A DNA stretch of 30,741 bases from Anaeromyxobacteraceae bacterium (GTDB lineage: Bacteria; Myxococcota; Myxococcia; Myxococcales; Anaeromyxobacteraceae). The notes beneath the pieces were generated by a model, which was given only the letters and a program-made list of their open reading frames with translations, did no database searches and was not told the origin of the DNA. A program made the translations under genes and the position numbers. Below, one piece after another: positions 4,173 to 27,167 of this stretch (the stretch's first letter is position 1; every line of letters begins with the position of its first letter). The stretch spans positions 1 through 30,741 of the forward strand of contig DAIEMM010000130.1 in NCBI GenBank assembly GCA_027349605.1. The letters run 5' to 3'.

Positions 4173-6146
4173 ATGCCCGCACTGTCATCCTCCGATCTCG
4201 TCGCGCCGCCGCCCGCTCCCCGCCCGGTCGAGGTGACGGACCTGGACGCATATCGTCGCCTGCATGCGCAGAGCTTGGCCGACCCGGAGGGCTTCTGGCG
4301 CGAGCGCATCGCTCCGTTCCGCTGGACCCGCCCGCCGGATCGGATCCTGGAGGGAGACGGCCCGGGGGCTCGCTGGTTCGTGGGGGGGCAACTGAACGTC
4401 GCCGACAACGCCCTCGACCGCTGGGTGGACGAGGGACATGGAGATCGGACCGCCCTGATCTGGGAGAGCGAAGGAGTCGATCACCTTCGGCGGCCGCTGG
4501 AGACTCGCCAATATTCGTTCCGGGAACTGCGCGACGCCGTGGCACGGGCAGCGGGGGCGCTCCGCGACCTGGGGGTGCGGCAAGGCGACCGCGTCACCGT
4601 GTACCTGCCCATCGTCCCGGAACTTCCCATCGCCATGCTGGCGTGCGCCCGGCTGGGAGCGGTCCACAACGTCATCTTCGCCGGCTTCCCGGACCAGGCG
4701 CTGCTCGACCGGATAGAGGACAGCCAGAGCAGGGTCGTCGTGACGGCGGACGGCGGCTACCGTGGTGGCAAGGCCATCGCCCTCAAGTCCGTCGTCGACG
4801 CCGCGGCACGCAGGACGTCGCTCGTCGAGAAGGTCCTCGTGCTACGGCGGACGGGCGAGCCCGTAGGCTGGACGCCCGGCCGCGACCACTGGTGGCACGA
4901 GGCCTTGGAGAGAGCGACTCCCGCCGCTCCGGTGCCGGTGGCGAGCGATGCGCCCCTCTTCGTCATGTATACCTCCGGATCCACGGGGAAGCCGAAGGGG
5001 ATCACGCACGGTACTTCCGGATATCTGGTCCACACGGCGCTGACGGCACTCCATGCCTTCGACCTCCGGCCCGGAGACGTGAACTGGTGCACCGCCGATC
5101 CGGCCTGGATCACGGGTCACACCTACACGGTCTACGGGCCGCTGCTGTCCGGCGCGGCCACAGTGCTCTTCGAGGGAGTGCTCGGCTTTCCGGACTGGGA
5201 TCGGGCCTGGGACGTGGTCGAGCGGCACCGTCCGGCGGTGCTCTACTCCACGCCCACCCTCGTCCGGGCCTGGCTCCGGCAGGGGGACGCAGGCCCGCGA
5301 GAGCGAGACCTCTCCTCCCTCCGCCTGCTCGCGTCGGTGGGGGAACCCATCAGTCCGAGCGTCTGGCACTGGTTTCGGGACGTCGTGGGAGGCGGACGGA
5401 CGCCGGTGGTCGATACGTGGTGGCAGACCGAGGCCGGCGCCGCGATGATCTTCCCGTTGCCCTACGTCACCCCGGCCAAGCCCGGCTCGGCCACCCTGCC
5501 GTTCTTCGGGGTCGATCCTGCCATCGCCGATGCAGAGGGTCGATTGCTCGACGGGGAAGCGGCGGGTCAGCTGGTGATCCGGCGTCCCTGGCCAGGCATG
5601 CTGCATGGCATCTGGGGCAGCCCGGAGCGGTATCGCGACACCTACTGGAAGTCGGTACCAGGTGCGTTCGTCACGGGCGACGCCGCGCGCCGGGACGCCG
5701 ACGGGTATGTCTGGATCGTGGGGCGTACCGATGACGTCATCAAGGTGAACGGGCACCGGCTCGGGACGGCCGAGATCGAGGGAGCGGTCGTGTCCCACCC
5801 GGCGGTGTCGGAGAGCGCGGTGGTCGGCGTGCCCGACGAGCGGTCAGGTGAGGCGGTGCTCGTCTTTGTCGTGCTGAAGCCCGGATTCTCCGCCGACGCG
5901 GAGCTCGAGTCGGGAATCGTCCACGCCATCGAGGCGATGGTTGGAAAGCTGGCGCGACCGCGCGAGCTGCGCTTCCTGAAGGCGCTTCCCAAGAACCGAA
6001 GCGGCAAGATCTTGCGGCGCATGCTGCGGGAGTGGGCCGTGACCGGCAAGGTGACGGGTGACACGACGACGCTCGACGACGCCTCGGCGCTCCCTCCGTC
6101 GACGGATGGCGAGCTCGTGGATCACGTGCAGAGGGGCATCGAGTGA
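4173..6146 (+). CDS. acs: Acetyl-CoA synthetase (AMP-forming)
   Basis: YTSGSTGKPKG, WCTADPAWITGHTY, SVGEPI, DTWWQTE, RTDDVIKVNGHRLG, RSGKILRR (Lys equivalent to the acetylated K609). Confidence 0.85.
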   Translation: MPALSSSDLVAPPPAPRPVEVTDLDAYRRLHAQSLADPEGFWRERIAPFRWTRPPDRILEGDGPGARWFVGGQLNVADNALDRWVDEGHGDRTALIWESEGVDHLRRPLETRQYSFRELRDAVARAAGALRDLGVRQGDRVTVYLPIVPELPIAMLACARLGAVHNVIFAGFPDQALLDRIEDSQSRVVVTADGGYRGGKAIALKSVVDAAARRTSLVEKVLVLRRTGEPVGWTPGRDHWWHEALERATPAAPVPVASDAPLFVMYTSGSTGKPKGITHGTSGYLVHTALTALHAFDLRPGDVNWCTADPAWITGHTYTVYGPLLSGAATVLFEGVLGFPDWDRAWDVVERHRPAVLYSTPTLVRAWLRQGDAGPRERDLSSLRLLASVGEPISPSVWHWFRDVVGGGRTPVVDTWWQTEAGAAMIFPLPYVTPAKPGSATLPFFGVDPAIADAEGRLLDGEAAGQLVIRRPWPGMLHGIWGSPERYRDTYWKSVPGAFVTGDAARRDADGYVWIVGRTDDVIKVNGHRLGTAEIEGAVVSHPAVSESAVVGVPDERSGEAVLVFVVLKPGFSADAELESGIVHAIEAMVGKLARPRELRFLKALPKNRSGKILRRMLREWAVTGKVTGDTTTLDDASALPPSTDGELVDHVQRGIE

Positions 6147-6163
6147 CTCGACTGGTCACGGAG
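6139..6163. promoter_or_regulatory. Candidate sigma54-activator binding site (UAS A)
   Basis: TCGAGTGAC-TCGACTG-GTCACGGAG; perfect GTGAC-N7-GTCAC core; overlaps the acs stop codon; centre is 71 bp from the GG of the promoter at 6222. Confidence 0.55.
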
Positions 6164-6220
6164 TAGTTGGAAGGGCCACTCCAGGCTTGGTCAAGTGTGC
6201 GCAACCACGAGGCGCAGGCC

Positions 6221-6236
6221 TGGCTCGACGCATGCA
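6221..6236 (+). promoter_or_regulatory. Sigma54 -24/-12 promoter for small secreted protein P1
   Basis: TGGCTCGACGCATGCA (GG-N10-GC); 18/19 identical over 6220-6238 to 15210-15228. Confidence 0.65.
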
Positions 6237-6250
6237 CTGAACCCCTCCAT

Positions 6251-6295
6251 GCTCGGAGTGAGCGAAGGCGGCCGGCATCCGGCCCCGCACCGAGC
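6251..6295 (+). ncRNA. Structured 5-prime leader, copy 1 (candidate cis-regulatory RNA)
   Basis: GCTCGG-AGTG-AGCGAA-GG-C-GGCCGG-CAT-CCGGCC-CC-GCA-CCGAGC; same architecture as 15242-15284, with compensatory changes. Confidence 0.5.
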
Positions 6296-6311
6296 GGGAA
6301 AGGATGAGTTC

Positions 6312-6563
6312 ATGTCGAAGCGAATCGCATTGGCAGTGCTGATGTCGGTTCTGGCCGCGCCGGGTCTGGCAACCGAAGGCAATCAGCCGAGGGAGGCCTC
6401 CGAGGACCCCTCCACGAAGACACGCTCGAAGACCGTGTGCGTGTGCACCTTCGAAGGACGACCCGACCCGGCACGGTCGCATCCCTGTGCTCCGGTCCAG
6501 TCGGAGAAGACCGAGACCCGGAGCAACATCGACGAGCACCCCGAGGACTATCAGGCAGGCTGA
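6312..6563 (+). CDS. Small secreted CxC protein P1 (83 aa), uncharacterised
   Basis: ATG after AAAGGA; Sec-type signal MSKRIALAVLMSVLAAPGLA; mature part has VCVC plus HPC; has its own promoter. Confidence 0.65.
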   Translation: MSKRIALAVLMSVLAAPGLATEGNQPREASEDPSTKTRSKTVCVCTFEGRPDPARSHPCAPVQSEKTETRSNIDEHPEDYQAG

Positions 6564-7750: not shown

Positions 7751-8362
7751 TCAGTGGGAATGGTGGCTGTCCTTGGCTGGCCCAGCTGGAATTGATTGAA
7801 GGAACTCCTGGTCCTGCTGGAGCTCGCGCCACTCGCCGGGGCTCCTCGGGTTGAGCCGTTCCATCTCGAGGAGCTCCTCCGGTCCGAGACGCGGCAGGTG
7901 ACGGATGAAGAGCACCAGCTTCCAGCTGACCGCGGGAGACACCTCGCCGCCCCATCCGGGCATCCCGGTGAAGCGGATGCCATTCTCGATGACGTGGAAG
8001 AGCTCACCGTCGGTCAGGGACTGCGTGGCGGGAAGCCGCATGTCGGGAGCGCGAGGGTAGAGCCGTCGTCCCAGTGCCGTCTGCCCACTCCCGTCGTTAC
8101 CGTGACACGAGGCGCAGTGATCCGCGAAATGCGCTCGCGCCTCGACCAGCGTCTCGCGAGTCGAGGGAACGGGATTGACCTGGCTCCGGACCGCGGACGG
8201 GATCGCCACTCCGCGCACGAGGCGGGCGAGCCGGGCCTCGACGGCACCGGGCTCGTCCCGGGCGCTCAGTCCACTCTGCCGGACCGCCACGACCCCGAGA
8301 GCGAGCCCAGCCACCGCCAGGAGCCCGACGACGGCGAGGATTCGGTACCCGATCCGCAGCAT
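7751..8362 (-). CDS. Membrane-anchored monoheme c-type cytochrome (203 aa)
   Basis: N-terminal TM helix; HCASCHG heme motif; YPRAPD; LTDGELFHVIENGIRFTGMPGW (axial Met); C-terminal SHHSH. Confidence 0.85.
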   Translation of the reverse strand: MLRIGYRILAVVGLLAVAGLALGVVAVRQSGLSARDEPGAVEARLARLVRGVAIPSAVRSQVNPVPSTRETLVEARAHFADHCASCHGNDGSGQTALGRRLYPRAPDMRLPATQSLTDGELFHVIENGIRFTGMPGWGGEVSPAVSWKLVLFIRHLPRLGPEELLEMERLNPRSPGEWRELQQDQEFLQSIPAGPAKDSHHSH

Positions 8363-8390
8363 TCGAGGCTCGCTCGCGCCAGGGTGTCGA

Positions 8391-8906
8391 CTAAAGCGTC
8401 GACGTGCCCGGGTTGGAGGCGAGCCGAGCGGTCCGGGCGGCAGGCTGGAGTTGCTGGGCCCGGCGGAGAATCTCGGAAGCAACCGCGTCATCGGTCGAAC
8501 GAATCACGATGACGAATCGGCTTCCGTCGAAGCGAACACTGGCGGAGGCGCCCGGCACGAAGGCCGGGCAGGCGTTCATCCACGGCTCCTGTCGCGCCAT
8601 CGCCTCGGCGAGGTGGCAGTCGGCGATGCGCTGGAGTGCCTCGACCGAAAGTCCCGGCACCTGCCGAACGGAGATGATGGCGCCGCGCACGATCGGAAGG
8701 GCGCTGCTTCTCGAGACGCGGTAGCGCTGTTCGCGGAGCGCCGTCACCGACTCGACGTCCTCGGCGCGAACGAACAGGCTCATGTTGCGTTCGGCGTCGC
8801 TGAGGCCGGCGCACGCCTGGGCGGTGGTAGGGGGAGAGGGCGGTGCGCTCGCGGGAGAGCCAGAGACTGCGAGCGCGGCGGAACTAAGGATTGCGATGAG
8901 TTGCAT
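8391..8906 (-). CDS. Hypothetical secreted protein with three Cys (171 aa)
   Basis: ATG 8906 after GGAG; signal peptide MQLIAILSSAALAVSG; QAC, ADCH and ACP motifs; first gene after the sigma54 promoter at 8943-8958. Confidence 0.65.
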   Translation of the reverse strand: MQLIAILSSAALAVSGSPASAPPSPPTTAQACAGLSDAERNMSLFVRAEDVESVTALREQRYRVSRSSALPIVRGAIISVRQVPGLSVEALQRIADCHLAEAMARQEPWMNACPAFVPGASASVRFDGSRFVIVIRSTDDAVASEILRRAQQLQPAARTARLASNPGTSTL

Positions 8907-8942: not shown

Positions 8943-8958
8943 AGCAAGGTTCATGCCG
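8943..8958 (-). promoter_or_regulatory. Sigma54 promoter for the 8906-6622 operon
   Basis: CGGCATGAACCTTGCT (GG-N10-GC, consensus TTGCT). Confidence 0.65.
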
Positions 8959-10871: not shown

Positions 10872-11969
10872 TCAGGACTCCCGAAGGACTTCGGAGGGAT
10901 CGAGTGCGACGGCGCGGCGCGTCGCCAGTGCAGCGGCCCCGGCGGCCACCAGACCAGCACCGATGACCGCGAAAGCGAACAGGTCGAGGGACGGGGATGC
11001 GGCAGCTCCAAGCGTGCGCGCGGAGAGCCAGCGGGTCGCCGGGATGGCAGTGAGGTACCCGGCCACTCCGCCGGCGATTCCGGACAGCCCAGCCGACGCG
11101 ACGAAGAGCGCCGCGACGACGGAGGGCGAGACCCCGATCGCCGCGAGCAATCCGAGGTCGCGCCGTGCCCTGCGCGCCTGCGCGGAGACGAGCGCGGCGA
11201 CGAGGCCGGCGACCGTCAGGGATCCAGCGATCAGGAGGGCCATGGCGTAGCGCCCCATCGTCGCGACCGCTCCCTTCTGGGCCTTCACCACGCCAGCGAC
11301 CGTGATCGCCCGGGAGCCGGGGAGGATGCGCTCCACCTCCTTCCCGAGCGCGGCCACGTCGATTCGGCACCAGCAACCAGCGAGTCGCAGGGCGTTGATG
11401 GCACCGGGCTGGCCGAGGACTTGCTGGGCCGTGACGAGGGGAACCAGGATCGCGTCCTCGAGGCCATCGGGCGGGCGGTCCATCACGCCCGCGACGGAGA
11501 GGCTGGCACCGTTGAGCTCGATGATGGAACCAGGCCGGAAACCGAGCCGGCCCGCCGCGGAAGGAGACAGCATGGCGGGCGCCGTCCCCACCACCGGCGA
11601 CCGGGGCCAGCTTCCCTCCTCGCCCACGAGGAGGACGTCCCGCCCACCGACGACCACGTGCCCGTACAGCCTGGCCTGGCTCCCGCGGATGTCCGAGGCG
11701 ATCTCGGACGACTTCAGGATGACCGGTGAGGCGTCGGGGAGCACCGACGGCCCGTACCGCTGCAGGTGAAAGTCACCAACGTCCTGGTCCCTGGGCAAGA
11801 CCAGCATGTTCGACCCGAGCCGGTGGGCCAGGTCATGGATGGCGCCATCAGCGGACGACGTCACCGCTCTCTGGGCGACGAGGGCCGCCACGATGAGGGC
11901 GACTGCCAGCGCGACGAGCGCGTACTCGCCCCAACGCACTCGTAGATACGCGAAAGTGATCCTGATCAT
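10872..11969 (-). CDS. MacB/FtsX-family ABC transporter permease with periplasmic CWC motif (365 aa)
   Basis: LGSNMLVLP after TM1, RRDLGLLAAIG motif, LDPSEVLRES end; periplasmic LRLAGCWCRID. Confidence 0.8.
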   Translation of the reverse strand: MIRITFAYLRVRWGEYALVALAVALIVAALVAQRAVTSSADGAIHDLAHRLGSNMLVLPRDQDVGDFHLQRYGPSVLPDASPVILKSSEIASDIRGSQARLYGHVVVGGRDVLLVGEEGSWPRSPVVGTAPAMLSPSAAGRLGFRPGSIIELNGASLSVAGVMDRPPDGLEDAILVPLVTAQQVLGQPGAINALRLAGCWCRIDVAALGKEVERILPGSRAITVAGVVKAQKGAVATMGRYAMALLIAGSLTVAGLVAALVSAQARRARRDLGLLAAIGVSPSVVAALFVASAGLSGIAGGVAGYLTAIPATRWLSARTLGAAASPSLDLFAFAVIGAGLVAAGAAALATRRAVALDPSEVLRES

Positions 11970-12016
11970 TCAGGCGTGCCCCCGGTCCGATGTGCTCGCA
12001 TTCGACGATGCGACGA

Positions 12017-12032
12017 TGCATGGGGCGGGCCG
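12017..12032 (-). promoter_or_regulatory. Sigma54 promoter for the ABC operon
   Basis: CGGCCCGCCCCATGCA (GG-N10-GC); 93 bp from the UAS C centre. Confidence 0.5.
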
Positions 12033-12111
12033 GAGCGGTCGCAATGACGTTTTCCCGCCATTCCTCGTCATACCCGCCGTCTTCAGGACGAAGTGGCCGA
12101 GCCGGCCGCCA

Positions 12112-12136
12112 CAGTGTGACGTTGCTGGTCACGCTG
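12112..12136. promoter_or_regulatory. Candidate activator binding site (UAS C)
   Basis: CAGTGTGAC-GTTGCTG-GTCACGCTG; the extended CGCCACAGTGTGA-N8-GTCACGCTGG is shared exactly with UAS E. Confidence 0.75.
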
Positions 12137-12195
12137 GTGCGGTCCCGATAGAGCGGAGCCTCCTGTGCTCGTGTGCTCAAGCCGGGAAGGCAGGA

Positions 12196-12211
12196 GGGCA
12201 CGCAAACTGCA
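12196..12211 (+). promoter_or_regulatory. Sigma54 promoter for the 12225-13133 genes
   Basis: GGGCACGCAAACTGCA; 73 bp from the UAS C centre. Confidence 0.6.
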
Positions 12212-12224
12212 GAAGCATGTTCCT

Positions 12225-12683
12225 GTGAGCGAACGAACAAGAGAGGCGGCGACCGAACCAGGACTCCCCGACCCAGGCGGATGCGCATTCGGCCCAGGGT
12301 TCTTTCTTGGTCAGCTCCGGGCGTTCGCGCGTGAAAGGTGTCCCGACCCAGCGGAGGGGCTACCGTCCGTGTCGGTCCACCTCGCCACGGGCGAGGTGCT
12401 GTCACTGTGTCACGTGGCAGGGCTCGCCCCGTGCTTCGTCGCACTCGTAATCCGTGAGGCAGACCGTGGCGACGGGCGAATGGCCACCGAGCTCGTCCCT
12501 TACTCGCTCATCACGCGCGTGACCATCCGAGCCGCGACCGGGGCAGATCGCCATGTGGGGTTCGACGCCACCCATGTGCCGCACATCCTCTCCGGGCGAC
12601 GCCCTCTCAGTCCGGAGGCGACCCTTCGAAGGGTGGCCATGCCTCCCGGAGTCGCTACCGTGGTGGAAGAAGACCGCGAGTAA
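12225..12683 (+). CDS. Hypothetical Cys-containing cytoplasmic protein (about 152 aa)
   Basis: GTG 12225 chosen because the ORF-track start 12165 lies upstream of the promoter; GCAFGPGFFLG, RCPDPAE, LCHV and ELVPYSLITRV look protein-like. Confidence 0.65.
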   Translation: MSERTREAATEPGLPDPGGCAFGPGFFLGQLRAFARERCPDPAEGLPSVSVHLATGEVLSLCHVAGLAPCFVALVIREADRGDGRMATELVPYSLITRVTIRAATGADRHVGFDATHVPHILSGRRPLSPEATLRRVAMPPGVATVVEEDRE

Positions 12684-12698
12684 GCGGAGGCAAGGCGA

Positions 12699-13133
12699 AT
12701 GAGTGGCCCGCGACTCCTAGTCCTCGGCGAGAAGCCACGACGAATCCTAGCCACCGCGCTGGGGCGCTCCTGGGAGATCACGGTCGCCCATGACGGCAGC
12801 GAGGCCCTGACGCTGCTCGCCGCCGAGTCTTTCGACGTTGCTTTCCTCGCGGATGAAGGCGGCGCACAGCACATCGATGCCGACTTCGTCCAGGCTGCGC
12901 ATCAAGTCGCTCCCGAGACCGAGATCGTCACCGTGTCCCATCTCCGTCTGGGATCGTGGCTTCCCGGGGAATGCCCGCCAGATGTCTACGGATTCCTGAC
13001 CTGGCCGCTCGATTCCGAACTCGTGGTGCGAACCCTTCGGGGTGCGGTCGAGCGTCGACGATTGCGCGCGGAGATCGAGTATCTGCGCGCCGAGCTTCGA
13101 CGGAGAGTTGGAATTCGAGACGTGGCCTCGTGA
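12699..13133 (+). CDS. Atypical (pseudo) receiver domain with NtrC-type coiled-coil linker (144 aa)
   Basis: RBS GGAGG; AHDGSEALTLL..ESFDV pattern; acidic pocket, phospho-Asp and Lys replaced (FLTWP); ends AVERRRLRAEIEYLRAEL. Confidence 0.7.
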   Translation: MSGPRLLVLGEKPRRILATALGRSWEITVAHDGSEALTLLAAESFDVAFLADEGGAQHIDADFVQAAHQVAPETEIVTVSHLRLGSWLPGECPPDVYGFLTWPLDSELVVRTLRGAVERRRLRAEIEYLRAELRRRVGIRDVAS

Positions 13134-13197
13134 GTCGGGCGCCCAGGGTTCATGGACCTAGCTAGCCGGCAATCCGGGTGCTGGAGCATTGGAGACT

Positions 13198-13259: not shown

Positions 13260-13300
13260 CGAGGTCGGGTTCAACCGGCCCCACTGCATGAAAATCAAGA

Positions 13301-13421: not shown

Positions 13422-13469
13422 GGCGGTAGCGGCAACTCGTCAATGGAGCGTGACTGAGGAGCCGATGGA

Positions 13470-18027: not shown

Positions 18028-18498
18028 ATGACACGCATCCGTGTACTGGTGGCGGACGACGATCTGGACCAGAGGGCTCTCTGGACTGGAATCCTGCAGG
18101 GGGAGTTCGAGGCGGACGTCGTGACGGTCAACGACGGTGTGACCGCGATCAAATGCCTCTGCGAAGAGGGCTTCGATCTCGTCGTCGTCAATCACGACGT
18201 CCCGCTCGTTTCGGGCATGGACATACTCAGATACGTCCGAGCGAGATGGCCCTGGCTCCCGTTCCTCCTTCCGGCGAGAAGGGCCTCCCCGGTCGTTCGC
18301 ACCGAGGCGCGCCGCCTGGGCGCTCACGTGATCGCCAAGCCATTTGGAGCCGGTTACGCCGCCCGGTTGCTCGCCGTCGCAGCCTCGCGTCGGTCCCGCG
18401 GCAGGCCGCCATCGCGGGCCGATACCCGCTTCCGCAGGCACGTCGCGCCTGCCGAGGGATCGCAGAGGTGTGCACCGACGCGGCATGACAGCGCATGA
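18028..18498 (+). CDS. Stand-alone receiver domain lacking the phospho-acceptor Asp (156 aa)
   Basis: VLVADDD, DGVTAI, FDLVVVNHDVP (Asp to Asn), AKPF; Arg-rich tail. Confidence 0.75.
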   Translation: MTRIRVLVADDDLDQRALWTGILQGEFEADVVTVNDGVTAIKCLCEEGFDLVVVNHDVPLVSGMDILRYVRARWPWLPFLLPARRASPVVRTEARRLGAHVIAKPFGAGYAARLLAVAASRRSRGRPPSRADTRFRRHVAPAEGSQRCAPTRHDSA

Positions 18499-18525
18499 CG
18501 CTGCTCCGCCACGTCCCTGCCTGGA

Positions 18526-20289
18526 CTACGCCGCGCACTCGCCTGTCTTGACGTCCACCAGGAACTCCTCCGCACTCCCCGGCTCGACGAAGTCCTCGGC
18601 CGTCGCATCCTCCAGGCGGAGATCCTCGAACGAGGCCACGGCCTCCCTTGCCCGATCGGTTGCGCGCGCGAAGAAGGCGCCCGCGGGCTCCCCGGCGCGC
18701 CGTTCCGCGAGGTAGAGCGAGACGAGCCTCGTGACGGCTTCCGGAATGCGCCGCGATGGAACCTTCCCTACGGGCACGCCAAACCGTGCCTCGCTGCCAT
18801 CCGGATGTCCCCCGACCAGGATCGAATATTGCGGGACGGCTCGACCTCCGAGCTTCCTGGCACTTCCCTGCAGCCCGATGGCGGCCAGGTGGTGCTGGCT
18901 GCACCCGTTCGGGCACCCAGACACGTGCACCGGGAGCTCGGCCTGCAGGGCGAGCGGGCCGAGAGCCGTACGCACTTCGCCCTCGACGAGCCGGGCGACG
19001 GTCCGCGTCTGGGTGACCGCCAGCCGACAGACCTCCGCGCCAGGGCAGGCCACGACGTCGGCCGCACTTCCGGCTCCGTCCCGGCCCAACCCGACGGAGG
19101 TGAGCGCGTTGAATAGGGTACGCAGGTTGTCGTCCGCAACCCACCGGACGAGGATGTGGCCGCCACTCGTGAAGCGGACGCCACCCCCTCCGAAGGCTTC
19201 GGACAGGTCGGCCAGGGCCTCCAGCTGCGCGGCCGTCACATCGCCGAGCGGAAGGGACACCACGACGGAGGAGTACCCGGCCTGCCGTTGCGGTTGGACG
19301 TTCGTGGCCTGGAAGCCCTCCCAGCCCGGGTCGGGGCGAGACGGAACGGGAAGCGCCGGCAGTGGCTCCCGAGGTGCCCAGGTCTCGGGCGGCTGCTCGG
19401 GGGAGAAGGGTAGGGAGGGGACCCCATCTTCGCGAATCGACTCGAGCTCCTCGAGCACGAGCGCCCGGAACCGATCGAACCCCAGGGCACGCACCAGGAA
19501 CTTGAGACGGTTGCGTTGTCGGTTGACCCGGTCGCCGTGAGCGTGGAAGACGCGGACGACCGCCTCACCCAAGGCCAGGATCTCGCCTGCTGGCAGGAAA
19601 TCCAGGAGAGGGGATGCGGACGTGCAAAGGGTCGATGTCCCACCGGCGACGGAGACGGCGAAGCCTCGGACGACCTTCCCGTCGACGGACCGGACACGGG
19701 CCCGAAAGCCGAGATCCTGGATCGCGATCGGAACGTGATCCTCAGAGCACCCCTCGAAGGCGACCTTGAACTTGCGCGGGAGCGCGTCCCCGAGCGGATG
19801 GCGCAGGAAGTGGCGCGTGAATGCCTCGGCGTACGCAGTGGTGTCGAAGACCTCGTCCGGGGAGATCCCGCCGAACGGGCACGAAACCACGTTCCGGACC
19901 GTGTTCCCTCCTGCGCCGGAGGTGGTGATTCCCGCCTCGGCAAGTCGCCGAACGGCGGGCCCCACGTCGCCGGGCCTCACGAAGTGAAGCTGGAAGTTCT
20001 GGCGGGTCGTGAGGTGACCGAAGCCCCGGGAGTAGCGGGTCGCGGTGTCGGCGAGAGCGCGCAGCTGGACGGCAGTCACGGAACCCTGTGGCAGCTTGAT
20101 CCGCAACATGTGGATGCCGTCCTGCCGTTGACCGTAGACGCCTCGGGCCACGCGGTAGGCGCGCCAGGTGTCGGCGTCGATCTCCCCGCGCTCGAAGCGG
20201 CCCAGGTTCTCGACCAGTGCGGCAATCTCCGCCTCGTCTGCGAAGGTCGCCGCGGGTGGGGTAAGTGTTGATGGGTGAGTGGACGTCAT
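18526..20289 (-). CDS. Ferredoxin-type siroheme sulfite/nitrite reductase (sulfite likely from context)
   Basis: GVYGQRQ, HLTTRQNFQLH, NTVRNVVSCP, LPRKFK, CPGAEVC and SGCPNGCSQH (4Fe-4S/siroheme Cys); ends GECAA. Confidence 0.9.
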   Translation of the reverse strand: MTSTHPSTLTPPAATFADEAEIAALVENLGRFERGEIDADTWRAYRVARGVYGQRQDGIHMLRIKLPQGSVTAVQLRALADTATRYSRGFGHLTTRQNFQLHFVRPGDVGPAVRRLAEAGITTSGAGGNTVRNVVSCPFGGISPDEVFDTTAYAEAFTRHFLRHPLGDALPRKFKVAFEGCSEDHVPIAIQDLGFRARVRSVDGKVVRGFAVSVAGGTSTLCTSASPLLDFLPAGEILALGEAVVRVFHAHGDRVNRQRNRLKFLVRALGFDRFRALVLEELESIREDGVPSLPFSPEQPPETWAPREPLPALPVPSRPDPGWEGFQATNVQPQRQAGYSSVVVSLPLGDVTAAQLEALADLSEAFGGGGVRFTSGGHILVRWVADDNLRTLFNALTSVGLGRDGAGSAADVVACPGAEVCRLAVTQTRTVARLVEGEVRTALGPLALQAELPVHVSGCPNGCSQHHLAAIGLQGSARKLGGRAVPQYSILVGGHPDGSEARFGVPVGKVPSRRIPEAVTRLVSLYLAERRAGEPAGAFFARATDRAREAVASFEDLRLEDATAEDFVEPGSAEEFLVDVKTGECAA

Positions 20290-20299
20290 GGAGTTCCTT

Positions 20300-21661
20300 T
20301 CAGGCCCTCTGCGCGTCCGCGCGAGGGGTCGCTTCCACGGGCTGGGTGGCGTGGCCCGACACGAGGGACAGGCCGGCCACGCTTCCTACGACGATGGTTC
20401 CTGGCAAGTGAGCCGCCTCCTCGGGAAGGACGGTCGAGCCGAGCTCGGCGAGCGTGCCTCGCCAGCTTGCGGAACCGCTGCTCGACGCGCCCAGCAGGAC
20501 GGCCGCAGGCGTGTCGTCCCGCCAACCACGTTCGCGAAGCCGAGCGCTGATCCCCGCCCTCTCTCCGATTCCCATCAGGATCACGAGGGTCAGCGAGCCA
20601 GGGGCGACTCCATCCAGGATCGGGCCGTACGAGCGCTCGGAGTGTCCGGAGACGACGGCGAAGCCCGCGGCGAGGCCGCGGTGGGTGACCGGAATGCCGG
20701 CGAGCGCAGGGGCGGCGATGGACGAAGAGACTCCCGGGACGACCTCGAACGGAACGCCAGCCGCCGCGAGCGCCTGGGCCTCCTCGCCACCCCGGCAGAA
20801 GACGAAGGGATCCCCGCACTTGAGCCGGACCACGCGCTGTCCACGTCGGGCCGCCTTCACGAGCAGACGCTCGATGGACCGCTGGGACACGCTCGGCGTT
20901 CCTGCGCGCTTCCCGACGTAGAAGCAGTGGGCCCGGGGCGCGAGCTTCAGCACCTCGCCATCGGTCAGGGCGTCGTAGAGAACCAGGTCGGCCTCGGCGA
21001 GCCGCTCGGCCGCGCGACGCGTGAGAAGCCCCGCGTCCCCCGGCCCGGCTCCGACGAGCGAGACGAATCCGGGGGGCAGACGGGTGGACGTCTCCGGGCC
21101 GCCACCGTAAAGCGCGTTCAGCTTCTGGAGGAGCATGGGCCGCCTGGTCGCAAGCGGCACGCCGGCACGCTTCCACCCCGAGCGCTCACCCTCCGCCAGG
21201 TCCATCCAGGCCCCTAGATCCCGCGGCAGGACCGCGTCGATCGCCTCCCGGAGGAGGCCGGCAAGCGCGGGGGCGCGCCCGGCTGTCGAGATGGCGACCG
21301 TGGCTCCCCCGCGTCGGACGACGCCTGCGGTGTAGGCGGTGGCGCAGTCCGGGTCGTCGACGGCGTTGACGAGGATGCGGCGCTCCTCCGCGGCATCGGC
21401 CACGGCGCGGTTCACGGCCGCGGTCGCCGCGGCGACGGCGAACCACGTCCCATCGAGATCCCGGGGCTCGAACGGGCGCCGCAGGACGACCTCCGCCAGT
21501 GCCGCCGCGCCGTCGCTGACCTCCGGGGCGACGACGGTGAGACGCGCGCCGGCCGCGGCGAGCTGCTTCGCCCGGGCGGTCGCCATGGCGCCACCTCCCA
21601 CGATGACGACCCGGCGGCCCGCGAGCTTGGCGAACAGGGGGAACAGCTCCGGTGTGCTCAC
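20300..21661 (-). CDS. cysG: Siroheme synthase (dehydrogenase/ferrochelatase plus uroporphyrinogen-III C-methyltransferase)
   Basis: FPLFAKLAGRRVVIVGGG, NAVDDP, AISTAGRAP; VSLVGAGPGDAGLLT, RLKCGDPFVFCRGGEE, VVPGVSS. Confidence 0.92.
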   Translation of the reverse strand: MSTPELFPLFAKLAGRRVVIVGGGAMATARAKQLAAAGARLTVVAPEVSDGAAALAEVVLRRPFEPRDLDGTWFAVAAATAAVNRAVADAAEERRILVNAVDDPDCATAYTAGVVRRGGATVAISTAGRAPALAGLLREAIDAVLPRDLGAWMDLAEGERSGWKRAGVPLATRRPMLLQKLNALYGGGPETSTRLPPGFVSLVGAGPGDAGLLTRRAAERLAEADLVLYDALTDGEVLKLAPRAHCFYVGKRAGTPSVSQRSIERLLVKAARRGQRVVRLKCGDPFVFCRGGEEAQALAAAGVPFEVVPGVSSSIAAPALAGIPVTHRGLAAGFAVVSGHSERSYGPILDGVAPGSLTLVILMGIGERAGISARLRERGWRDDTPAAVLLGASSSGSASWRGTLAELGSTVLPEEAAHLPGTIVVGSVAGLSLVSGHATQPVEATPRADAQRA

Positions 21662-21900
21662 ATGATTCCCCAGAGGCGAGAGTACTCGAGCACGATCTGG
21701 AACTCCGGATCCCGGAAGCCGTGCCCTCGGAGATACGCCTTCGCCGCATGGGCCTCGACCGTCTCGGAGGAGAAGGAGACGTGCTGGCGCTTGCGATGCA
21801 CCCGGAAGCCGATCGCCTGGAGCGCGCCGGCCAGCTCGTTCACCCGGGGCTCCGCCAGCTCTCCGGCAGGGCTCACCGTCGTGACGTGGGAGACCATCAC
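21658..21900 (-). CDS. Small hypothetical protein (79-80 aa), translationally coupled
   Basis: Start overlaps the YeiH stop (GTGATG) and its stop overlaps the cysG start (ATGA). Confidence 0.7.
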   Translation of the reverse strand: MMVSHVTTVSPAGELAEPRVNELAGALQAIGFRVHRKRQHVSFSSETVEAHAAKAYLRGHGFRDPEFQIVLEYSRLWGIM

Positions 21901-23237
21901 TTCACCCCGTTCCAGTAGTCGGCGAAGACGTGAGCGGAGAGCCAGTAACCGAGCGGCACGTTCACGATCACGCCCACGGCGAAGGCCGCGAACGGCCTCC
22001 AGCCGAAGCGCGTCAGCTCCCGGAACCGCGTGGTGAACCCGATGCTGAGGAAGGTCCAGGTGAAGGCCCAGCCTCGAAGGGTCTTCAAGGGGGCGATGGC
22101 CTCCTTGGAGAAGCGGGTGCCACTCTTAGCGTCGATGGAGGCGAGGACGAAGGTCACCACGAGGGATGCAGCCAGGAAGCCGAGGATGAACTTGGGGAAC
22201 CGGCGCCAGATCTCGCCCACGTCGACCCGCTCGGCCTCGCCCGACTTCTTCCTGTCCCAGATGGTGACGGAGAGAAGCGCGACGACCAGCGCCCAGACGC
22301 CCACGAACATGTCACGCCCCACGACCTTCATGAGCGTGAAGGTCTTGATCGCTCGTTCGTCCCCGACGGCGGAGGCCGCCGCGAAGCCGGCCGCGTCCGC
22401 GAACTCGGACGTTCCGATCCAGGCGCCGGCCACGCCGGGCTCGAGGCCGAGGTTCCTTGCCCAGAGCGGGAGCACGAAGATCATCGCGACCGCCCAGAGG
22501 ATCACCATGGAGATCGCCACCGAAACGTGGCTCTTCTCGGCCCGGCAGGCGCCGCCGATGGCGATGGCCGCCGAAACCCCGCAGATCGACCCGCCCGCTC
22601 CGAGCGTGGCGCCGAAGCGGGGGTCGAGACCGAACAGGCGGGTCGCTGCGAAGTAGATGGTGGCGAAGGTGGTGACCGCGACGATGGTCGCCTGTGCGAT
22701 GGCGAGCGGGCCTGCCTGCAGGATGATCGTGAAGGGCAGGGTCGCTCCCAGGAGGATGATGCCGACCTTCACGTAGAACTCCGTGCGCAGCGCGGACTGG
22801 AACCACCCAGGCAGGGTCACCGAGTTGCCGAGCAGCATCCCGACGGCAAGCGCCAGGAGGGGAGTCTCGAGCTGCCACTGCTTGAGCGTCTGGTTGGAGC
22901 CGAGCACGGTCACGACGATCGAGAAGACGAAGAGGAGCGCGAACCCGGCCGCATACTTCCCCACGTCCCAGCCGATGACGGCGGATGCCGCGGAGAACGC
23001 GAGGAGGAAGACCGCGAAGAGCGCGATCGGCCCGGCTGGCTGGGCCGCGAAGGTGGCGGCGACCTTGGCCAGGCTTCCGGACCAGGTCGGGATGGTGAGC
23101 GCCGTCGCCCCCACGAAGGGCGATGCTCCGAGGAAGAAACCCGTCGTCACGGCGAGCACGAGACCGAGGGCGATGAAGATGGCCCAGGTGTCCTCGCGAC
23201 GGTGCCAGGGGAGTGCGATGGGGGCGATGTTGGACAT
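21897..23237 (-). CDS. YeiH/PSE family putative sulfate exporter (446 aa)
   Basis: ATG 23237 after GAGGAAG; EDTWAI, LRTEFYVKVGIILLGA, GGSICGVSAAIA, AWIGTSEFADAAG, FPKFILGF; multiple TMs. Confidence 0.88.
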   Translation of the reverse strand: MSNIAPIALPWHRREDTWAIFIALGLVLAVTTGFFLGASPFVGATALTIPTWSGSLAKVAATFAAQPAGPIALFAVFLLAFSAASAVIGWDVGKYAAGFALLFVFSIVVTVLGSNQTLKQWQLETPLLALAVGMLLGNSVTLPGWFQSALRTEFYVKVGIILLGATLPFTIILQAGPLAIAQATIVAVTTFATIYFAATRLFGLDPRFGATLGAGGSICGVSAAIAIGGACRAEKSHVSVAISMVILWAVAMIFVLPLWARNLGLEPGVAGAWIGTSEFADAAGFAAASAVGDERAIKTFTLMKVVGRDMFVGVWALVVALLSVTIWDRKKSGEAERVDVGEIWRRFPKFILGFLAASLVVTFVLASIDAKSGTRFSKEAIAPLKTLRGWAFTWTFLSIGFTTRFRELTRFGWRPFAAFAVGVIVNVPLGYWLSAHVFADYWNGVK

Positions 23238-23251
23238 GGCGGCTTCCTCGA

Positions 23252-23782
23252 TCAGGCGGCGTCGCGGGCGTCCGACGAACGAACGTGCTCGAGCGATCCC
23301 GACACCGCGAGCGGTGTCCTCAGGATGTCGAGGACGGGGCAGTGGGCCTCGACCACCTCGGAAAGGTTCCGGATCGTCTCCGGCGACTCGGGCGACACGA
23401 CACGGGTCGCGAAGGTGACGCGGTCGAATCCGGCCGGGTACTTGGAGTCCCCGAGGAAACCGCGGAGGTCGAGATACCCCTTCGCCTCCACCTCGACCCG
23501 GTCGATGCGCAGGCCCAGGGCGTTGGCGTAGGCCCGGTACACGATCGCCTGGCAGCTGCCGAGCGCGGCGAGGACGGCCTCCACCGGGTTCGGCCCCGTG
23601 TCCGTCCCACCCAGATCCGCGGGCTCGTCCAGGCGTACGCCGAATCCACGAATGCTCGAGTCCGTGGACAGCGAGTCCGCGTCCGAAACGGTGGTTGCGC
23701 GGAACACGGCCCTGGCCGCGGCGGGGTTCTCGGTGACGGCCTGCTTCAGGGCGACGACTGCCTTCTTCACTTGCTCGCTCAC
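23252..23782 (-). CDS. OsmC/Ohr family protein (176 aa)
   Basis: GTG after GAGG; DEPADLGGTDTGPNPVE, LGSCQAI, AHCPVLD (Cys pair). Confidence 0.85.
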   Translation of the reverse strand: MSEQVKKAVVALKQAVTENPAAARAVFRATTVSDADSLSTDSSIRGFGVRLDEPADLGGTDTGPNPVEAVLAALGSCQAIVYRAYANALGLRIDRVEVEAKGYLDLRGFLGDSKYPAGFDRVTFATRVVSPESPETIRNLSEVVEAHCPVLDILRTPLAVSGSLEHVRSSDARDAA

Positions 23783-23881
23783 TTGGACCTCTGGACAGGG
23801 CTCGAGTACGGAGGCGCACGGCAGGAGCCCTTGGCCCATGCGCTCTACGTCGTGGATGGATGGGGGAGATTCGCCGGCTGC

Positions 23882-23986
23882 TCAGCCGCGCATTCGCGCG
23901 GGCGGCGCCGGCCTGCGACAGATGCACATCACCCGCGGCACGAGGCGGGGGCCGATGGGCTGCAGGTCATGGCCGAAGTGCATCAT
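23882..23986 (-). CDS. Putative leaderless Cys-containing leader peptide (34 aa)
   Basis: MMHFGHDLQPIGPRLVPRVMCICRRPAPPARMRG; ATG lies 7 nt after the -10 TAGGAT; 99 nt upstream of osmC. Too short for the ORF track. Confidence 0.5.
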   Translation of the reverse strand: MMHFGHDLQPIGPRLVPRVMCICRRPAPPARMRG

Positions 23987-24063: not shown

Positions 24064-25467
24064 TCAGTCGTCACGCTGCCGGTAGTCGTCCGAGCGCAGA
24101 CCGTGGGTCTTCAGGAGCCGGTGCAAGCTTTCGCGCTTGATGCCTGCCCGTTCCGCCGCCTTGGTCACGTTGCCGTGGAACTCGGTGAGGAGTGCCACCA
24201 GGTACTCGCGCGAGACGCGATCGTGCGCCTGCTCTACGGCCTCCCGGTAGGGCATGGACGCGAGTACCGCTCCGGGTGGGATGAGCATCGCTGTCGCAGC
24301 GGAGAGCTCTGGCGGGAGGTCGCGCCCCTGGATCGTCGTTCCGCTGGCGACGGCGACGGCGCGCTCCACGGCGTTTTCCAGCTCCCTCACGTTCCCGGGC
24401 CAGGGGTGCGACGTGAGCAGGCGGAGCGCCTCCGGGTCGAAGCCGGAGATCTCCCGCCGCATCGCGCTCGCATGTTTCTCCAGGAAATGCGTTGCGAGGA
24501 GGGGCACGTCCTCGATGCGATCGCGAAGCGGCGGCAAGTGAACCGGGAAGACGTGGAGACGGTAGTAGAGGTCCTCCCGGAAACGACCGGCCTGGGACTC
24601 GGCGCGCAGGTCCCGGTGGGTGGCCGCGATCACGCGGACGTCCACCTTCACGGGCGTGTTGTCTCCCACCCTTCGGATCTCCTTCTCCTGCAACGCGCGG
24701 TTGAGCTTCACCTGGGTCGCGAGAGGTAGCTCGCCGATCTCGTCGAGGAAGATGGTTCCACCCTGGGCCTCCTCGAAGATGCCCGCCTTGGCCCCGGCTG
24801 CACCCGTGAACGCGCCCCGTGCATGGCCGAAGAGCTCGCTCTCCACGAGATCGGGTGGCAAGGCGCCGCAGTTCACGGGCACGAACCGGCGCTCCTTCCG
24901 CGACGAGTGGTAGTGGATGGCGCGGGCCGCGAGCTCCTTGCCGGTGCCGGTCTCGCCGCCGAGGAGCACCGTGATGTCGAGCGCGGAAGCCTTCTCGAGG
25001 AGGCGGTACACCTCGCGCATCGGAGCGCTCTTCCCGATGAGGTTGTGGAAGGAGTACACGCCCTCGAGCTCCCGCCGCAGGCTCATCGCCTCGTCTCGGA
25101 GGCGCTTGCGTTCGGCGGCACGCGCCACCGTCAGGCCCGCGGCGTCGGGGTCGAACGGCTTCTCGAGGTAGTCGTAGGCTCCCATCTTCATTGCCTTCAC
25201 GGCGTCGCCGACCGTCCCATAGCCGGTCATCATCACCACCTCGGTGGAGGGGGAGCGTGCCTTCACGGCCTGGAGGACCTCGAACCCCCCGGCGCCCGGC
25301 ATGCGGATGTCGGTCACGACCACGTCGAACTCCTCGGTGCCGACGAGCGAGAGGGCGTGCGCTCCATCTCCAGCGGTCGACAGGCGGTAGCCGTGGGACA
25401 GGATCTTCCCGAACAGCTTCAGCATGTTTTCCTTGTCGTCGACGACGAGAACTCTCACGTCGGTCAT
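24064..25467 (-). CDS. Sigma54-dependent response regulator (NtrC family; CorR-like)
   Basis: Receiver VLVVDDK...VVTDIRMPG...YLEKPF; Walker A GETGTGKE; GAFTGA; FLDEIGE; C-terminal HTH GNVTKAAERAGIKRESL. Confidence 0.92.
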   Translation of the reverse strand: MTDVRVLVVDDKENMLKLFGKILSHGYRLSTAGDGAHALSLVGTEEFDVVVTDIRMPGAGGFEVLQAVKARSPSTEVVMMTGYGTVGDAVKAMKMGAYDYLEKPFDPDAAGLTVARAAERKRLRDEAMSLRRELEGVYSFHNLIGKSAPMREVYRLLEKASALDITVLLGGETGTGKELAARAIHYHSSRKERRFVPVNCGALPPDLVESELFGHARGAFTGAAGAKAGIFEEAQGGTIFLDEIGELPLATQVKLNRALQEKEIRRVGDNTPVKVDVRVIAATHRDLRAESQAGRFREDLYYRLHVFPVHLPPLRDRIEDVPLLATHFLEKHASAMRREISGFDPEALRLLTSHPWPGNVRELENAVERAVAVASGTTIQGRDLPPELSAATAMLIPPGAVLASMPYREAVEQAHDRVSREYLVALLTEFHGNVTKAAERAGIKRESLHRLLKTHGLRSDDYRQRDD

Positions 25468-26930
25468 CCTGAAACCTCCTGGGTGTGCGGAATGTGAGGA
25501 AGGCTCAGGGTGAAGATGGCTCCCCTGCCGGGCGCCGGGGAGAGCGCGATGTCCCCCCCGTGAGCACGCGCGATGGCGCGAGAAACCGCCAGGCCAAGGC
25601 CGGTACCCTTGTCCTTCGTGGTGAAGAACGGCTCGAAGAGCCGCGAGGCCGCGTGCTCCGCGAGGCCGGGTCCGTCGTCTTCCACGTCGACCCGGACCCA
25701 CTGCTCGTCGCCGCGCACCCGGATGGTCACCCGTCCGTTCGCCCCGGCGGCTTCGGCGGCGTTCCGAATGAGGTTGGTGAGCACCTGCCGGATCTTCAGG
25801 GGATGGCACTGCACGGTGGCCTCGCCGTCGATCGCGACCTGGACTCCCTCGAGGGCCTCGGCCTCCCGGAGGCGGCCGACGACTTCATCGGCGACCTCGC
25901 GAAGGTCGAGCACCTCGCGAGCCTGCGACAGCGGACGAGACAGGTCGAGAAGTCCCTCGACGATGTCGCGAGCACGGATGGCCTCCTCCTCGATCACGCG
26001 GACGTCGTCCGCCAGAGGCCCGCGAGCGCTCTTCCCGAGCAGTCGCGCATAGCCGAGGATGACGGCCAGAGGGTTGTTGATCTCGTGGGCGACGCCCGCA
26101 GCCAGGCGCCCGATGCCAGCCAGCTTCTCGCTCTGGACCAGGCGAGCCTGGTTTTCCTTGAGGGCCGCCGTCATGGAGTTGAACTGGCGGGCGAGAGCGC
26201 CGAACTCGTCATCGGTGCCGACGTCGATCCGGGTATCCAGGTCGCCGGACGCGAGCCTCGTGGCGCCCGCGCGCAGGCGACCCAGGGGGCCAGCAATCGA
26301 GCGGCCGACGCTCACCGCGATGGCGACGGCGAGAATTGGAGCGCCGATGAGGAGGACCATCACCCAGCGGTGGATGCTCTCCTCCGCCGCGAGGACCTCG
26401 GCCCGGGAAGCCCGGATGCTCGCCTCCGACTTCTCGGTGATGAGATTGGCTCGATCCTGGATGAGGGAGACGAGTTCCTGGGCCCGATCGTGCTCGGACT
26501 GGATGACGGTGGCGTCACGGCGAAGGACGGCGGGAACGATGGAATCGCGAAACAGCGAATCCAGGCTTCTGCCGGCCGTCTCGATGTCACCCATCCACCG
26601 GGATTCCTCTTCCCCTCGATAGTGCGCACGGAGCTCGCGCGTGAGTTCGTGCACGCGCTCGCGGGCTCCCACGTAATGACCCATGTGCGATTCGTTGCCG
26701 ATGATGATGGTGTGGGCCTGGTGGGCGTACTGGTCCCGCACCGCGCTGGCGAGCTCGAGCGCGAGCCGCATCCCTTCCTCGTCGTCCTTCATCCGTTCCA
26801 CCGCCAGGTGCGTGCTGTGCAAGCCGGCCAGCGCAACCCAGGATGTCACCCCCACGACGAGGGCGAGAGCGCCCAGGCCAAGGGCGAGCCGTCGCGCCGT
26901 TCCCGACCAGCCAGAGAGGAAGGTGTGCAT
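25464..26930 (-). CDS. HAMP sensor histidine kinase with His-rich periplasmic domain (CorS-like)
   Basis: Two TMs; periplasmic QYAHQAHTIIIGNESHMGHY; HAMP; H-box GVAHEINNPL; N-box NLIRNA; DDGPG, FFTTK, GTGLGL. Confidence 0.9.
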   Translation of the reverse strand: MHTFLSGWSGTARRLALGLGALALVVGVTSWVALAGLHSTHLAVERMKDDEEGMRLALELASAVRDQYAHQAHTIIIGNESHMGHYVGARERVHELTRELRAHYRGEEESRWMGDIETAGRSLDSLFRDSIVPAVLRRDATVIQSEHDRAQELVSLIQDRANLITEKSEASIRASRAEVLAAEESIHRWVMVLLIGAPILAVAIAVSVGRSIAGPLGRLRAGATRLASGDLDTRIDVGTDDEFGALARQFNSMTAALKENQARLVQSEKLAGIGRLAAGVAHEINNPLAVILGYARLLGKSARGPLADDVRVIEEEAIRARDIVEGLLDLSRPLSQAREVLDLREVADEVVGRLREAEALEGVQVAIDGEATVQCHPLKIRQVLTNLIRNAAEAAGANGRVTIRVRGDEQWVRVDVEDDGPGLAEHAASRLFEPFFTTKDKGTGLGLAVSRAIARAHGGDIALSPAPGRGAIFTLSLPHIPHTQEVSG

Positions 26931-26946
26931 TCAGTCATTCCGTTAC

Positions 26947-26962
26947 AGCAAGAGTTACGCCT
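26947..26962 (-). promoter_or_regulatory. Sigma54 promoter for the kinase/regulator operon (autoregulation)
   Basis: AGGCGTAACTCTTGCT; 75 bp from the UAS F centre. Confidence 0.55.
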
Positions 26963-27023
26963 GCGCTCGATGGACCGAAAATCAGCTACTTGGCGACCCG
27001 GATGGGACAGCTAGCCGCTCCGG

Positions 27024-27048
27024 GGGCGTGACCGTGATGGTGACAGTG
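27024..27048. promoter_or_regulatory. Candidate activator binding site (UAS F)
   Basis: GGGCGTGAC-CGTGATG-GTGACAGTG (7/9 per arm) between the regulator operon and the efflux operon. Confidence 0.6.
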
Positions 27049-27151
27049 TAATGCAGCAGATCGAAGGCGGAGTGCCGTGTCTGAAGGAGTCGAACGCTCG
27101 ATCTCCTGAAATGCCAGAGGCTTGGGTTGATGAGCCCCGCCGCCCGTGATT

Positions 27152-27167
27152 CGGCACGCCGAGTGCT
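27152..27167 (+). promoter_or_regulatory. Sigma54 promoter of the cupredoxin-cus operon
   Basis: CGGCACGCCGAGTGCT; 117 bp from the UAS F centre. Confidence 0.7.

Follow-up and report, generated by a model that had tools for sequence, protein, structure and literature searches.

A putative sigma-54 regulon of an NtrC-type regulator among cupredoxin and Cus genes of an Anaeromyxobacteraceae bacterium

The 30,741-bp contig DAIEMM010000130.1 (C196) belongs to a metagenome-assembled genome (MAG) of an Anaeromyxobacteraceae bacterium (GCA_027349605.1; 2.54 Mb in 514 contigs, 72% G+C, about 74% complete). The entire contig was analysed and is termed the window here. It encodes an NtrC-type response regulator (24064-25467) and a sensor kinase (25464-26930), and carries six palindromic sites flanked by predicted sigma-54 (-24/-12) promoters. 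We propose that the palindromes are enhancer sites of this regulator, that the kinase would phosphorylate it and that the sites would serve about eight neighbouring units; from the sequence evidence we put the probability of this reading at roughly three in four. An earlier interpretation made from the letters alone (the sequence-only reading) held that the window's activator controls all of these units and itself. The analysis favours a local sigma-54 regulon of the window's own NtrC-type regulator, through orthologue-linked sites, the recognition helix, cupredoxin modules and the presence of rpoN, but two of the promoters, the autoregulatory one included, are weak.

The sequence-only reading described a 25-bp palindrome, CAGYGTGAC-N7-GTCACRCTG, at six positions. 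All six sites are present, with centres at 6151, 9032, 12124, 13409, 15118 and 27036, but the consensus is overfitted and too generous. The true common element is the core GTGAC-N7-GTCAC. When used as a search pattern, the 25-bp consensus recovered three of the six sites at up to three mismatches; it was replaced by the core and by an independent position weight matrix (PWM) built solely from 10 orthologous sites in other genomes. The string CGCCACAGTGTGA-N8-GTCACGCTGG, said to be common to the sites at 12112 and 15106, is exactly so. The positions of the sites are also as described: one lies over a stop codon, the remaining five are intergenic, and one of these separates the kinase/regulator operon from the cus operon. 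The putative enhancers are listed below, with mismatches to the 18 specified letters of the 25-bp consensus, mismatches to the core, and PWM scores where given.

6139-6163: enhancer A; core GTGAC-N7-GTCAC; 5 and 0 mismatches; over the acetyl-CoA synthetase stop codon; 5.8 bits
9020-9044: enhancer B; core GTGAC-N7-GTTTC; 4 and 2 mismatches; 19.4 bits, genome rank 4
12112-12136: enhancer C; the sole perfect match to the 25-bp consensus; 0 and 0 mismatches; 22.9 bits, genome rank 2
13397-13421: enhancer D; core GTGAC-N7-GTTAC; 3 and 1 mismatches; 61 bp upstream of a patatin-YHS gene; 14.0 bits
15106-15130: enhancer E; core GTGAT-N7-GTCAC; 1 and 1 mismatches; between divergent cupredoxin and small-protein/HD units; 16.1 bits
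27024-27048: enhancer F; core 27028-27044, GTGAC-N7-GTGAC, with GTGAC in both halves and hence no strict palindrome; 4 and 1 mismatches; between the kinase operon and the cupredoxin-cus operon; top PWM match in the genome

Nine GGC-N8-TGCW elements point outward from these sites. The distances from palindrome centre to promoter GG given by the sequence-only reading (71, 73, 75, 75, 93, 94, 94, 115 and 117 bp) are all exact. Judged by consensus match only, seven of the nine fit TGGCAC-N5-TTGCW with at most two mismatches and account for half of the window's matches of this quality. The predicted promoters, with their distances, are as follows.

6221-6236, plus strand: 71 bp from enhancer A; ahead of a small secreted protein (6312-6563)
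8943-8958, minus strand: 75 bp from enhancer B; ahead of a secreted protein (8391-8906), a cytochrome c (7751-8491) and downstream genes
12017-12032, minus strand: weak resemblance to -24/-12 (3 mismatches); 93 bp from enhancer C; ahead of a MacB-like ABC exporter operon
12196-12211, plus strand: 73 bp from enhancer C; ahead of an open reading frame (ORF; 12225/12369-12683) and a receiver gene (12699-13133)
13301-13316, minus strand: TGGCACGCATCGTGCT, the closest fit to -24/-12 in the window; 94 bp from enhancer D
14989-15004, minus strand: 115 bp from enhancer E; ahead of a secreted cupredoxin (14560-14934)
15211-15226, plus strand: 94 bp from enhancer E; ahead of a small secreted protein (15302-15586) and then an HD-domain protein (15665-16630)
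26947-26962, minus strand: weak resemblance to -24/-12 (3 mismatches); 75 bp from enhancer F; shortly before the kinase start
27152-27167, plus strand: CGGCACGCCGAGTGCT; 117 bp from enhancer F; ahead of a cupredoxin, CusC, CusB and the start of CusA

The pattern exceeds chance, and two unbiased scans of the whole assembly agree on this. At up to one mismatch the core occurs eight times in the window, against 1.7 in shuffled sequence; the assembly as a whole, with 153 sites in 2.54 Mb, would predict 1.85. Nine outward GGC-N8-TGCW promoters flank the six sites where the genome-wide rate predicts 0.20 (Poisson, about 1e-12). When the core (up to one mismatch) was paired with an outward TGGCAC-N5-TTGCW promoter (up to two mismatches) at 50-140 bp, the 2.54-Mb assembly yielded seven pairs, six of them in this contig; about 1.6 would be expected genome-wide and 0.08 in the window by chance. 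The orthologue-derived matrix places the sites centred at 12124, 9032 and 15118 among the 12 best matches in the genome. At 12 bits or more the assembly holds 65 matches and the window six (27036, 12124, 9032, 15118, 13409 and a coding match at 6047). Combining these matches with promoters gives eight pairs, six in the window and one each on contigs C188 and C311, against about 0.7 expected.

Judged by its domains and motifs, the product of 24064-25467 is an NtrC-family response regulator and enhancer-binding protein with all the parts of an activator. It has a receiver domain (PF00072, 5.4e-27) with a DVVVTD motif that contains Asp52 in the translation, and an AAA+ domain (PF00158, 1.3e-68) with Walker A (GETGTGKE), GAFTGA and Walker B (FLDEIGE) motifs. 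The C-terminal Fis-type helix-turn-helix (HTH_8; PF02954, 3.5e-05) scores above its cut-off. Pfam and the translation give the kinase a transmembrane segment, a His-rich periplasmic domain, HAMP, HisKA and HATPase. The same assembly encodes rpoN (PF04552, 218 bits, contig C317). No NCBIfam equivalog passes its cut-off for the regulator: ZraR (NF007689) reaches 382.8 bits against a required 760, and AtoC, NtrC, GlrR and others fail too.

Ownership of the sites is addressed by comparison with other genomes. Most genomes of the genus and the family have an orthologue of the regulator (59-84% identity), and orthologues occur in some of the order's other families too; its closest named relatives are in an Anaeromyxobacter sp. 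MAG (72% identity) and in Corallococcus (61%), which marks the organism as an Anaeromyxobacter-like myxobacterium. The palindrome CGTRACC-N5-GGTCACAGTG adjoins the histidine kinase-response regulator (HK-RR) operon in all 10 aligned orthologous loci, where chance would supply about 0.03 sites per locus, and at loci with a cus or cupredoxin-cus operon it lies between that operon and the HK-RR genes. Several orthologous loci have a second palindrome exactly 20 bp away. Across 41 genomes there are 16 copies of the exact string GTRAC-N7-GTCACASTG; all are in genomes with an orthologue, and 14 are within 2 kb of its operon. Fifteen orthologues have an identical predicted recognition helix in the helix-turn-helix, RESLHRLLK, from which four paralogues differ. 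Same-genus relatives have an orthologue of the promoter at 27152, with 112-118 bp between it and the palindrome. In an Anaeromyxobacter-like genome of one 5.03-Mb contig (G020), 83 bp separate the palindrome from the cupredoxin promoter.

The palindrome with a sigma-54 promoter also precedes secreted cupredoxin genes in three other genera. One genome (G017) has three palindromes with promoters at 82-84 bp, ahead of a secreted cupredoxin (83 bp), a 61-residue secreted protein and the kinase operon. A second (G015) has the palindrome and a promoter (79 bp) ahead of a cupredoxin on another contig. The third, a 9-Mb Myxococcaceae-like genome (G029), has them (84 bp) ahead of cupredoxin-cusCB. Since this last module lies on a different contig from the regulator orthologue, it points to action in trans.

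The Myxococcaceae-like locus differs in what follows the pair. Both G029 (L035, contig C101, 7742-8640) and Corallococcus (L039) have the orthologous HK-RR genes followed by a hypothetical gene and an extracytoplasmic function (ECF) sigma factor gene, and G029 carries tandem palindromes 20 bp apart with a sigma-54-like promoter ahead of the ECF gene. This arrangement suggests a cascade from sigma-54 to an ECF sigma factor.

The distances between palindromes and promoters were tested for helical phase. Those in the window correspond to about 7, 9 and 11 helical turns; a Rayleigh test at 10.5 bp gives R = 0.74 and p = 0.015 for the seven good promoters and p = 0.007 for all nine, and the best-fitting period is 10.5-11 bp. 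Fifteen spacings outside the window (63, 64, 68, 74, 79, 82 four times, 83 twice, 84 twice, 105 and 119 bp) give p of about 0.03, with a mean phase that matches the window's (9.7 versus 10.3 bp). For all 22 pairs, which are few and partly non-independent by descent, p = 0.0008 and the mean phase is about 10.0 of 10.5 bp, which puts the dyad centre close to an integral number of turns from the -24 GG. The units at 6151 and 15118(+) are paralogous: they are alike in promoter (17 of 18 positions, 6221 versus 15211), leader and signal peptide, and the spacer of one is longer by a 23-bp indel, or about two helical turns. The sequence-only reading had spoken of three clusters about two turns apart. 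This describes the window, but spacings elsewhere fall at 63-64, 82-84 and 105 bp, so the rule would be one of whole turns. Its claim of helical phasing between enhancers and promoters finds moderate support in the tests in the window and over the 22 pairs, tempered by the small number and relatedness of the spacings and by outliers. Phasing is likely but not proven.

We propose that the kinase would sense metal stress in the envelope, most probably copper or silver, a specificity suggested by the gene content and the mine-drainage origin. Dimers of the phosphorylated regulator would, as in its family, bind TGTGAC-N7-GTCACA-like dyads situated upstream of sigma-54 promoters, at 6-11 whole helical turns from the -24 GG. 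Once bound, the regulator would form an ATPase ring, contact the closed complex of the sigma-54 holoenzyme through DNA looping and open it. Where a site separates divergent units, as several do, it would act on the promoters to either side. Most of the predicted target proteins belong to the envelope: two secreted cupredoxins, CusCBA, the operon of the PF13442 cytochrome c and two small secreted Cys-containing proteins. The HD-domain protein, the MacB-type exporter and the regulator's own operon are further predicted targets, the last two through weak promoters. A secreted protein encoded beside a multicopper oxidase would be a target outside the contig.

The locus of this off-contig target is on contig C311 (L033, 2103-6956). 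There the gene for an 831-residue multicopper oxidase faces away from a palindrome centred at 4894 and from a sigma-54 promoter whose GG, at 4976, is 82 bp from that centre. Downstream of this promoter are genes for a 213-residue secreted protein and a radical-SAM/SPASM enzyme, and several GGTAC repeats lie upstream of the oxidase.

Several results weigh against the proposal or narrow it. The 25-bp consensus suits only two of the six sites, at 0 and 1 mismatches, and misses 3-5 letters in each of the rest; enhancer A has a perfect core with poorly fitting flanks and a low score on the independent PWM. Second, tandem sites beside the window palindromes are not significant (four weak candidates versus about 1.9 expected). 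The promoters 12031(-) and 26961(-), ahead of the exporter and the kinase, have three mismatches each. Transcription from 26961(-), the autoregulatory promoter, would start about 7 nt before the kinase ATG and give a near-leaderless transcript. In six same-genus relatives (L013-L028) the palindrome is within about 10 bp of the kinase start codon, while the window has about 95 extra bases (26930-27024) that hold the weak divergent promoter; because the palindrome abuts the kinase start in these relatives, autoregulation from a divergent promoter is not general. The best promoter match, 13315(-), has no ORF downstream, and its 16-mer (13301-13316) also reads as a terminator-like hairpin with a T-tract. 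When synteny of the 6-18 kb part was sought in 10 relatives, only HK-RR-(cupredoxin)-cus proved syntenic, plus a cytochrome c and a cupredoxin in G017; the secreted protein at 8391-8906 has no match in five relatives. Because most targets in the 6-18 kb part are without a syntenic counterpart near the regulator, site-by-site conservation is limited to enhancer F. The phasing data are few and partly non-independent, and spacings of 68, 79 and 119 bp are outliers, the 68-bp pair being out of phase in one relative. The only public run of RNA type yields short, fragmentary contigs that cover coding parts but none of the intergenic sites; this would be compatible with the predicted starts, yet is uninformative.

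The surroundings of enhancer D have further features. The predicted 140-nt transcript from 13315(-) (region 13150-13316), which would begin at about 13291, has a fold of -62.8 kcal/mol (z = -3.0) and would be antisense to the 3' side of the receiver-only gene at 12699-13133; a small or antisense RNA from this promoter is possible. The 61 bp between enhancer D and the patatin-YHS start contain no -24/-12 element. An exact 12-bp direct repeat, GCGTGACTGAGG, has one copy at 13399-13410, forming the left half of enhancer D, and another 49 bp on at 13448-13459, just ahead of the patatin-YHS start codon.

The sites could instead serve another enhancer-binding protein, for example that of a paralogous system on contig C188, with the window regulator controlling just the cus-side site. 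The assembly has at least 16 NtrC-family matches, the divergent efflux/kinase pair on C188 has a dyad and a good promoter of its own, and the flanks of 12112 and 15106 (CAGTGTGA...GTCACGCTGG) are unlike those of the cus site. Yet it is the matrix made from orthologue-adjacent sites alone that lifts 12124, 9032 and 15118 into the top 12 of the genome; orthologue-linked sites in two other genomes (G023 and G006) include the CAGTGTAAT...GTCAC form, and in G017 several such sites are clustered beside the same orthologue. We regard this alternative as unlikely.

The C188 module itself (L034, 1074-4715) has an outer-membrane efflux gene divergent from genes for a HAMP kinase and a receiver protein. 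Its intergenic region holds the variant dyad TGTCAC-N7-GTTACA and, 82 bp away, a sigma-54 promoter with one mismatch.

Quite unlikely, in our judgement, is the idea that the palindromes bind a factor other than an enhancer-binding protein (a repressor or another dimer), or act as RNA or DNA hairpins (terminators or repeats), their proximity to promoters being incidental. It would suit the site at 6139, which is at a gene end, the hairpin-like 13315 'promoter' with its following T-tract, and the 9-bp stems that can form at 12112 and 15106. The sites, however, lie 63-119 bp upstream of promoters and not over them, at spacings that appear quantised by helical turns, and they are conserved next to an enhancer-binding-protein operon across families. 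A terminator or repetitive-palindrome reading was also tried and rejected: no T-tracts follow the palindromes, and a terminator scan gave two hits versus 3.8 in shuffles. That the pattern is a compositional artefact of GC-rich intergenic DNA picked by eye, as might be feared from the overfitted consensus and from a minimal promoter motif that is, as the sequence-only reading had said, common (1305 in the assembly, 26 in the window), is effectively refuted by genome-wide scans that return the same pairs and almost nothing else and by independent recovery of the pattern in other genomes.

A broader form of the proposed enhancer regulon can be put forward only tentatively. A conserved metal-sensing enhancer-binding protein of myxobacteria would act from a single dyad 6-11 whole turns from the -24 element at each target; the regulon would have expanded in this mine-drainage strain through duplicated promoter-leader-small-protein cassettes with indels of about two turns, and would have recruited unusual outputs such as the orphan promoter RNA opposite the receiver gene and the HD-domain protein. 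If true, this form would offer a natural set of spacing variants for the rules of looping and a regulator, so far unassigned, for cupredoxin-Cus copper efflux in Myxococcota.

The nearest precedent is the NtrC-type copper system CorSR/curA of Myxococcus xanthus, for which several putative sigma-54 promoters in one cluster, but no enhancer sequence, have been reported; curA is a nine-gene operon that includes a cupredoxin, CuoA, CorS, CorR, CopA and a cytochrome c (PMC3707914). Both systems, each in a myxobacterium, pair a periplasm-sensing kinase (transmembrane segment, HAMP) with a regulator of receiver, sigma-54-activator and HTH_8 domains, and both sit in gene clusters with several putative sigma-54 promoters. 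Targets common to both are a multicopper oxidase, a His-rich cupredoxin that is secreted (PF13473), and a cytochrome c (PF13442) with a hypothetical gene behind it; the products are mostly of the envelope in both. Unlike CorSR, which is embedded in an operon with cuoA and copA, the HK-RR genes of the window are divergent from cupredoxin-cusCBA; the window has no P-type ATPase (CopA), and the oxidase is on C311. Homologues with 61-66% identity in Corallococcus and G029 lie in the HK-RR-hypothetical-ECF sigma locus, which is not of curA type. Two loci of paralogues (51-52%; L126 and L127) lack the palindrome, L127, the one of the two with Pfam annotation, being a GGDEF/NAD-kinase/Ser-Thr-kinase neighbourhood; two cupredoxin loci (L130 and L131) have no nearby HK-RR pair, and no curA-type locus is found among L039, L035, L126 and L127. 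By analogy, the system would work like CorSR/curA with a differently organised locus.

ZraSR-ZraP of E. coli and Salmonella combines a metal-responsive kinase with a sigma-54-dependent regulator, and an inverted-repeat enhancer placed between divergent genes acts on a periplasmic-protein gene as well as on the regulator operon. The window has a similar divergent layout with a putative shared enhancer. Its regulator falls below the ZraR equivalog cut-off and so is no ZraR, the motif and the targets are different (cupredoxin/Cus versus ZraP), and many more units appear wired to it. NtrC at glnAp2 and NifA at nifH bind as dimeric helix-turn-helix proteins to dyads about 60-140 bp upstream of -24/-12 elements; they act by looping, in a phase-dependent manner when close, and tandem sites aid oligomerisation. 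The window differs from these in its dyad, TGTGAC-N7-GTCACA, and its putative phase dependence is drawn statistically from 22 spacings.

Cus2 of M. xanthus is described as induced by copper (and cadmium), and cus2 and cus3 as up-regulated in a copper-ATPase mutant; the parts of these reports available to us name no regulator of the Cus pumps in connection with their induction. A limited literature search found no description of an enhancer motif for the two-component system considered here. As proposed, this is a metal-responsive enhancer-binding-protein regulon of a well-known scheme with a new regulator, not a new principle. The analysis supplies a concrete motif (TGTGAC-N7-GTCACA-like) and a list of predicted targets for a two-component system conserved across Anaeromyxobacteraceae and Myxococcaceae, and predicts a link of sigma-54 control to cupredoxin-CusCBA copper efflux. 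The 22 spacings, likely phased on whole turns, would constitute a natural experiment in enhancer-promoter geometry. An expanded local regulon would fit the metal-rich mine-drainage habitat; near-identical DNA to the window is present in mine-drainage and sediment metagenome runs.

The gene content of the window, assigned by Pfam, is as follows.

1-6146: sulfur and acetate metabolism genes, the acetyl-CoA synthetase stop codon being overlapped by the site at 6139
6312-6563, plus strand: small secreted protein
8906 to about 6950, minus strand: operon headed by a secreted protein (8391-8906) and a PF13442 cytochrome c (7751-8491)
11969 to 9084, minus strand: MacB/ABC/FtsX exporter operon
12225/12369-12683, plus strand: ORF
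12699-13133, plus strand: stand-alone receiver-domain gene, by receiver homology
13470-14540, plus strand: patatin-YHS
14560-14934, minus strand: secreted cupredoxin
15302-15586, plus strand: small secreted protein
15665-16630, plus strand: HD-domain protein
17111-23927, minus strand: DoxX, sulfite reductase, sirohaem synthase, YeiH-like
24064-25467, minus strand: NtrC-type regulator
25464-26930, minus strand: kinase
27202-27618, plus strand: His-rich cupredoxin
27629-29011, plus strand: CusC
29031-30446, plus strand: CusB, followed by the start of CusA

Metals are a recurrent theme of these genes, with cupredoxins, CusCBA with a heavy-metal-binding domain, a YHS domain and, on contig C311, the multicopper oxidase. 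The cupredoxin at 14560-14934 is 37% identical to the cus-linked one. The patatin-like phospholipase, in the middle of the metal cluster, is fused to a C-terminal YHS-type putative metal-binding domain, a match that lies under the Pfam cut-off. The receiver-like protein (12699-13133) has 144 residues and no Pfam match, and is 31-37% identical to receiver domains of the regulator family, the window regulator included; it could serve as a decoy or a phosphate sink for the regulator's kinase, or be what is left of a truncated activator. A further good -24/-12 match, TGGCAAGCCCATTGCA (17676-17691, minus strand, one mismatch), stands shortly before the DoxX-like gene and has no palindrome close by; another activator may act on it, or the match may be due to chance. 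The part of the window from 11900 to 15400 has identical or near-identical sequence in several mine-drainage, sediment, soil and groundwater metagenomes among the public runs, in which 12243-12589 is covered by a strain variant that is about 89% identical.

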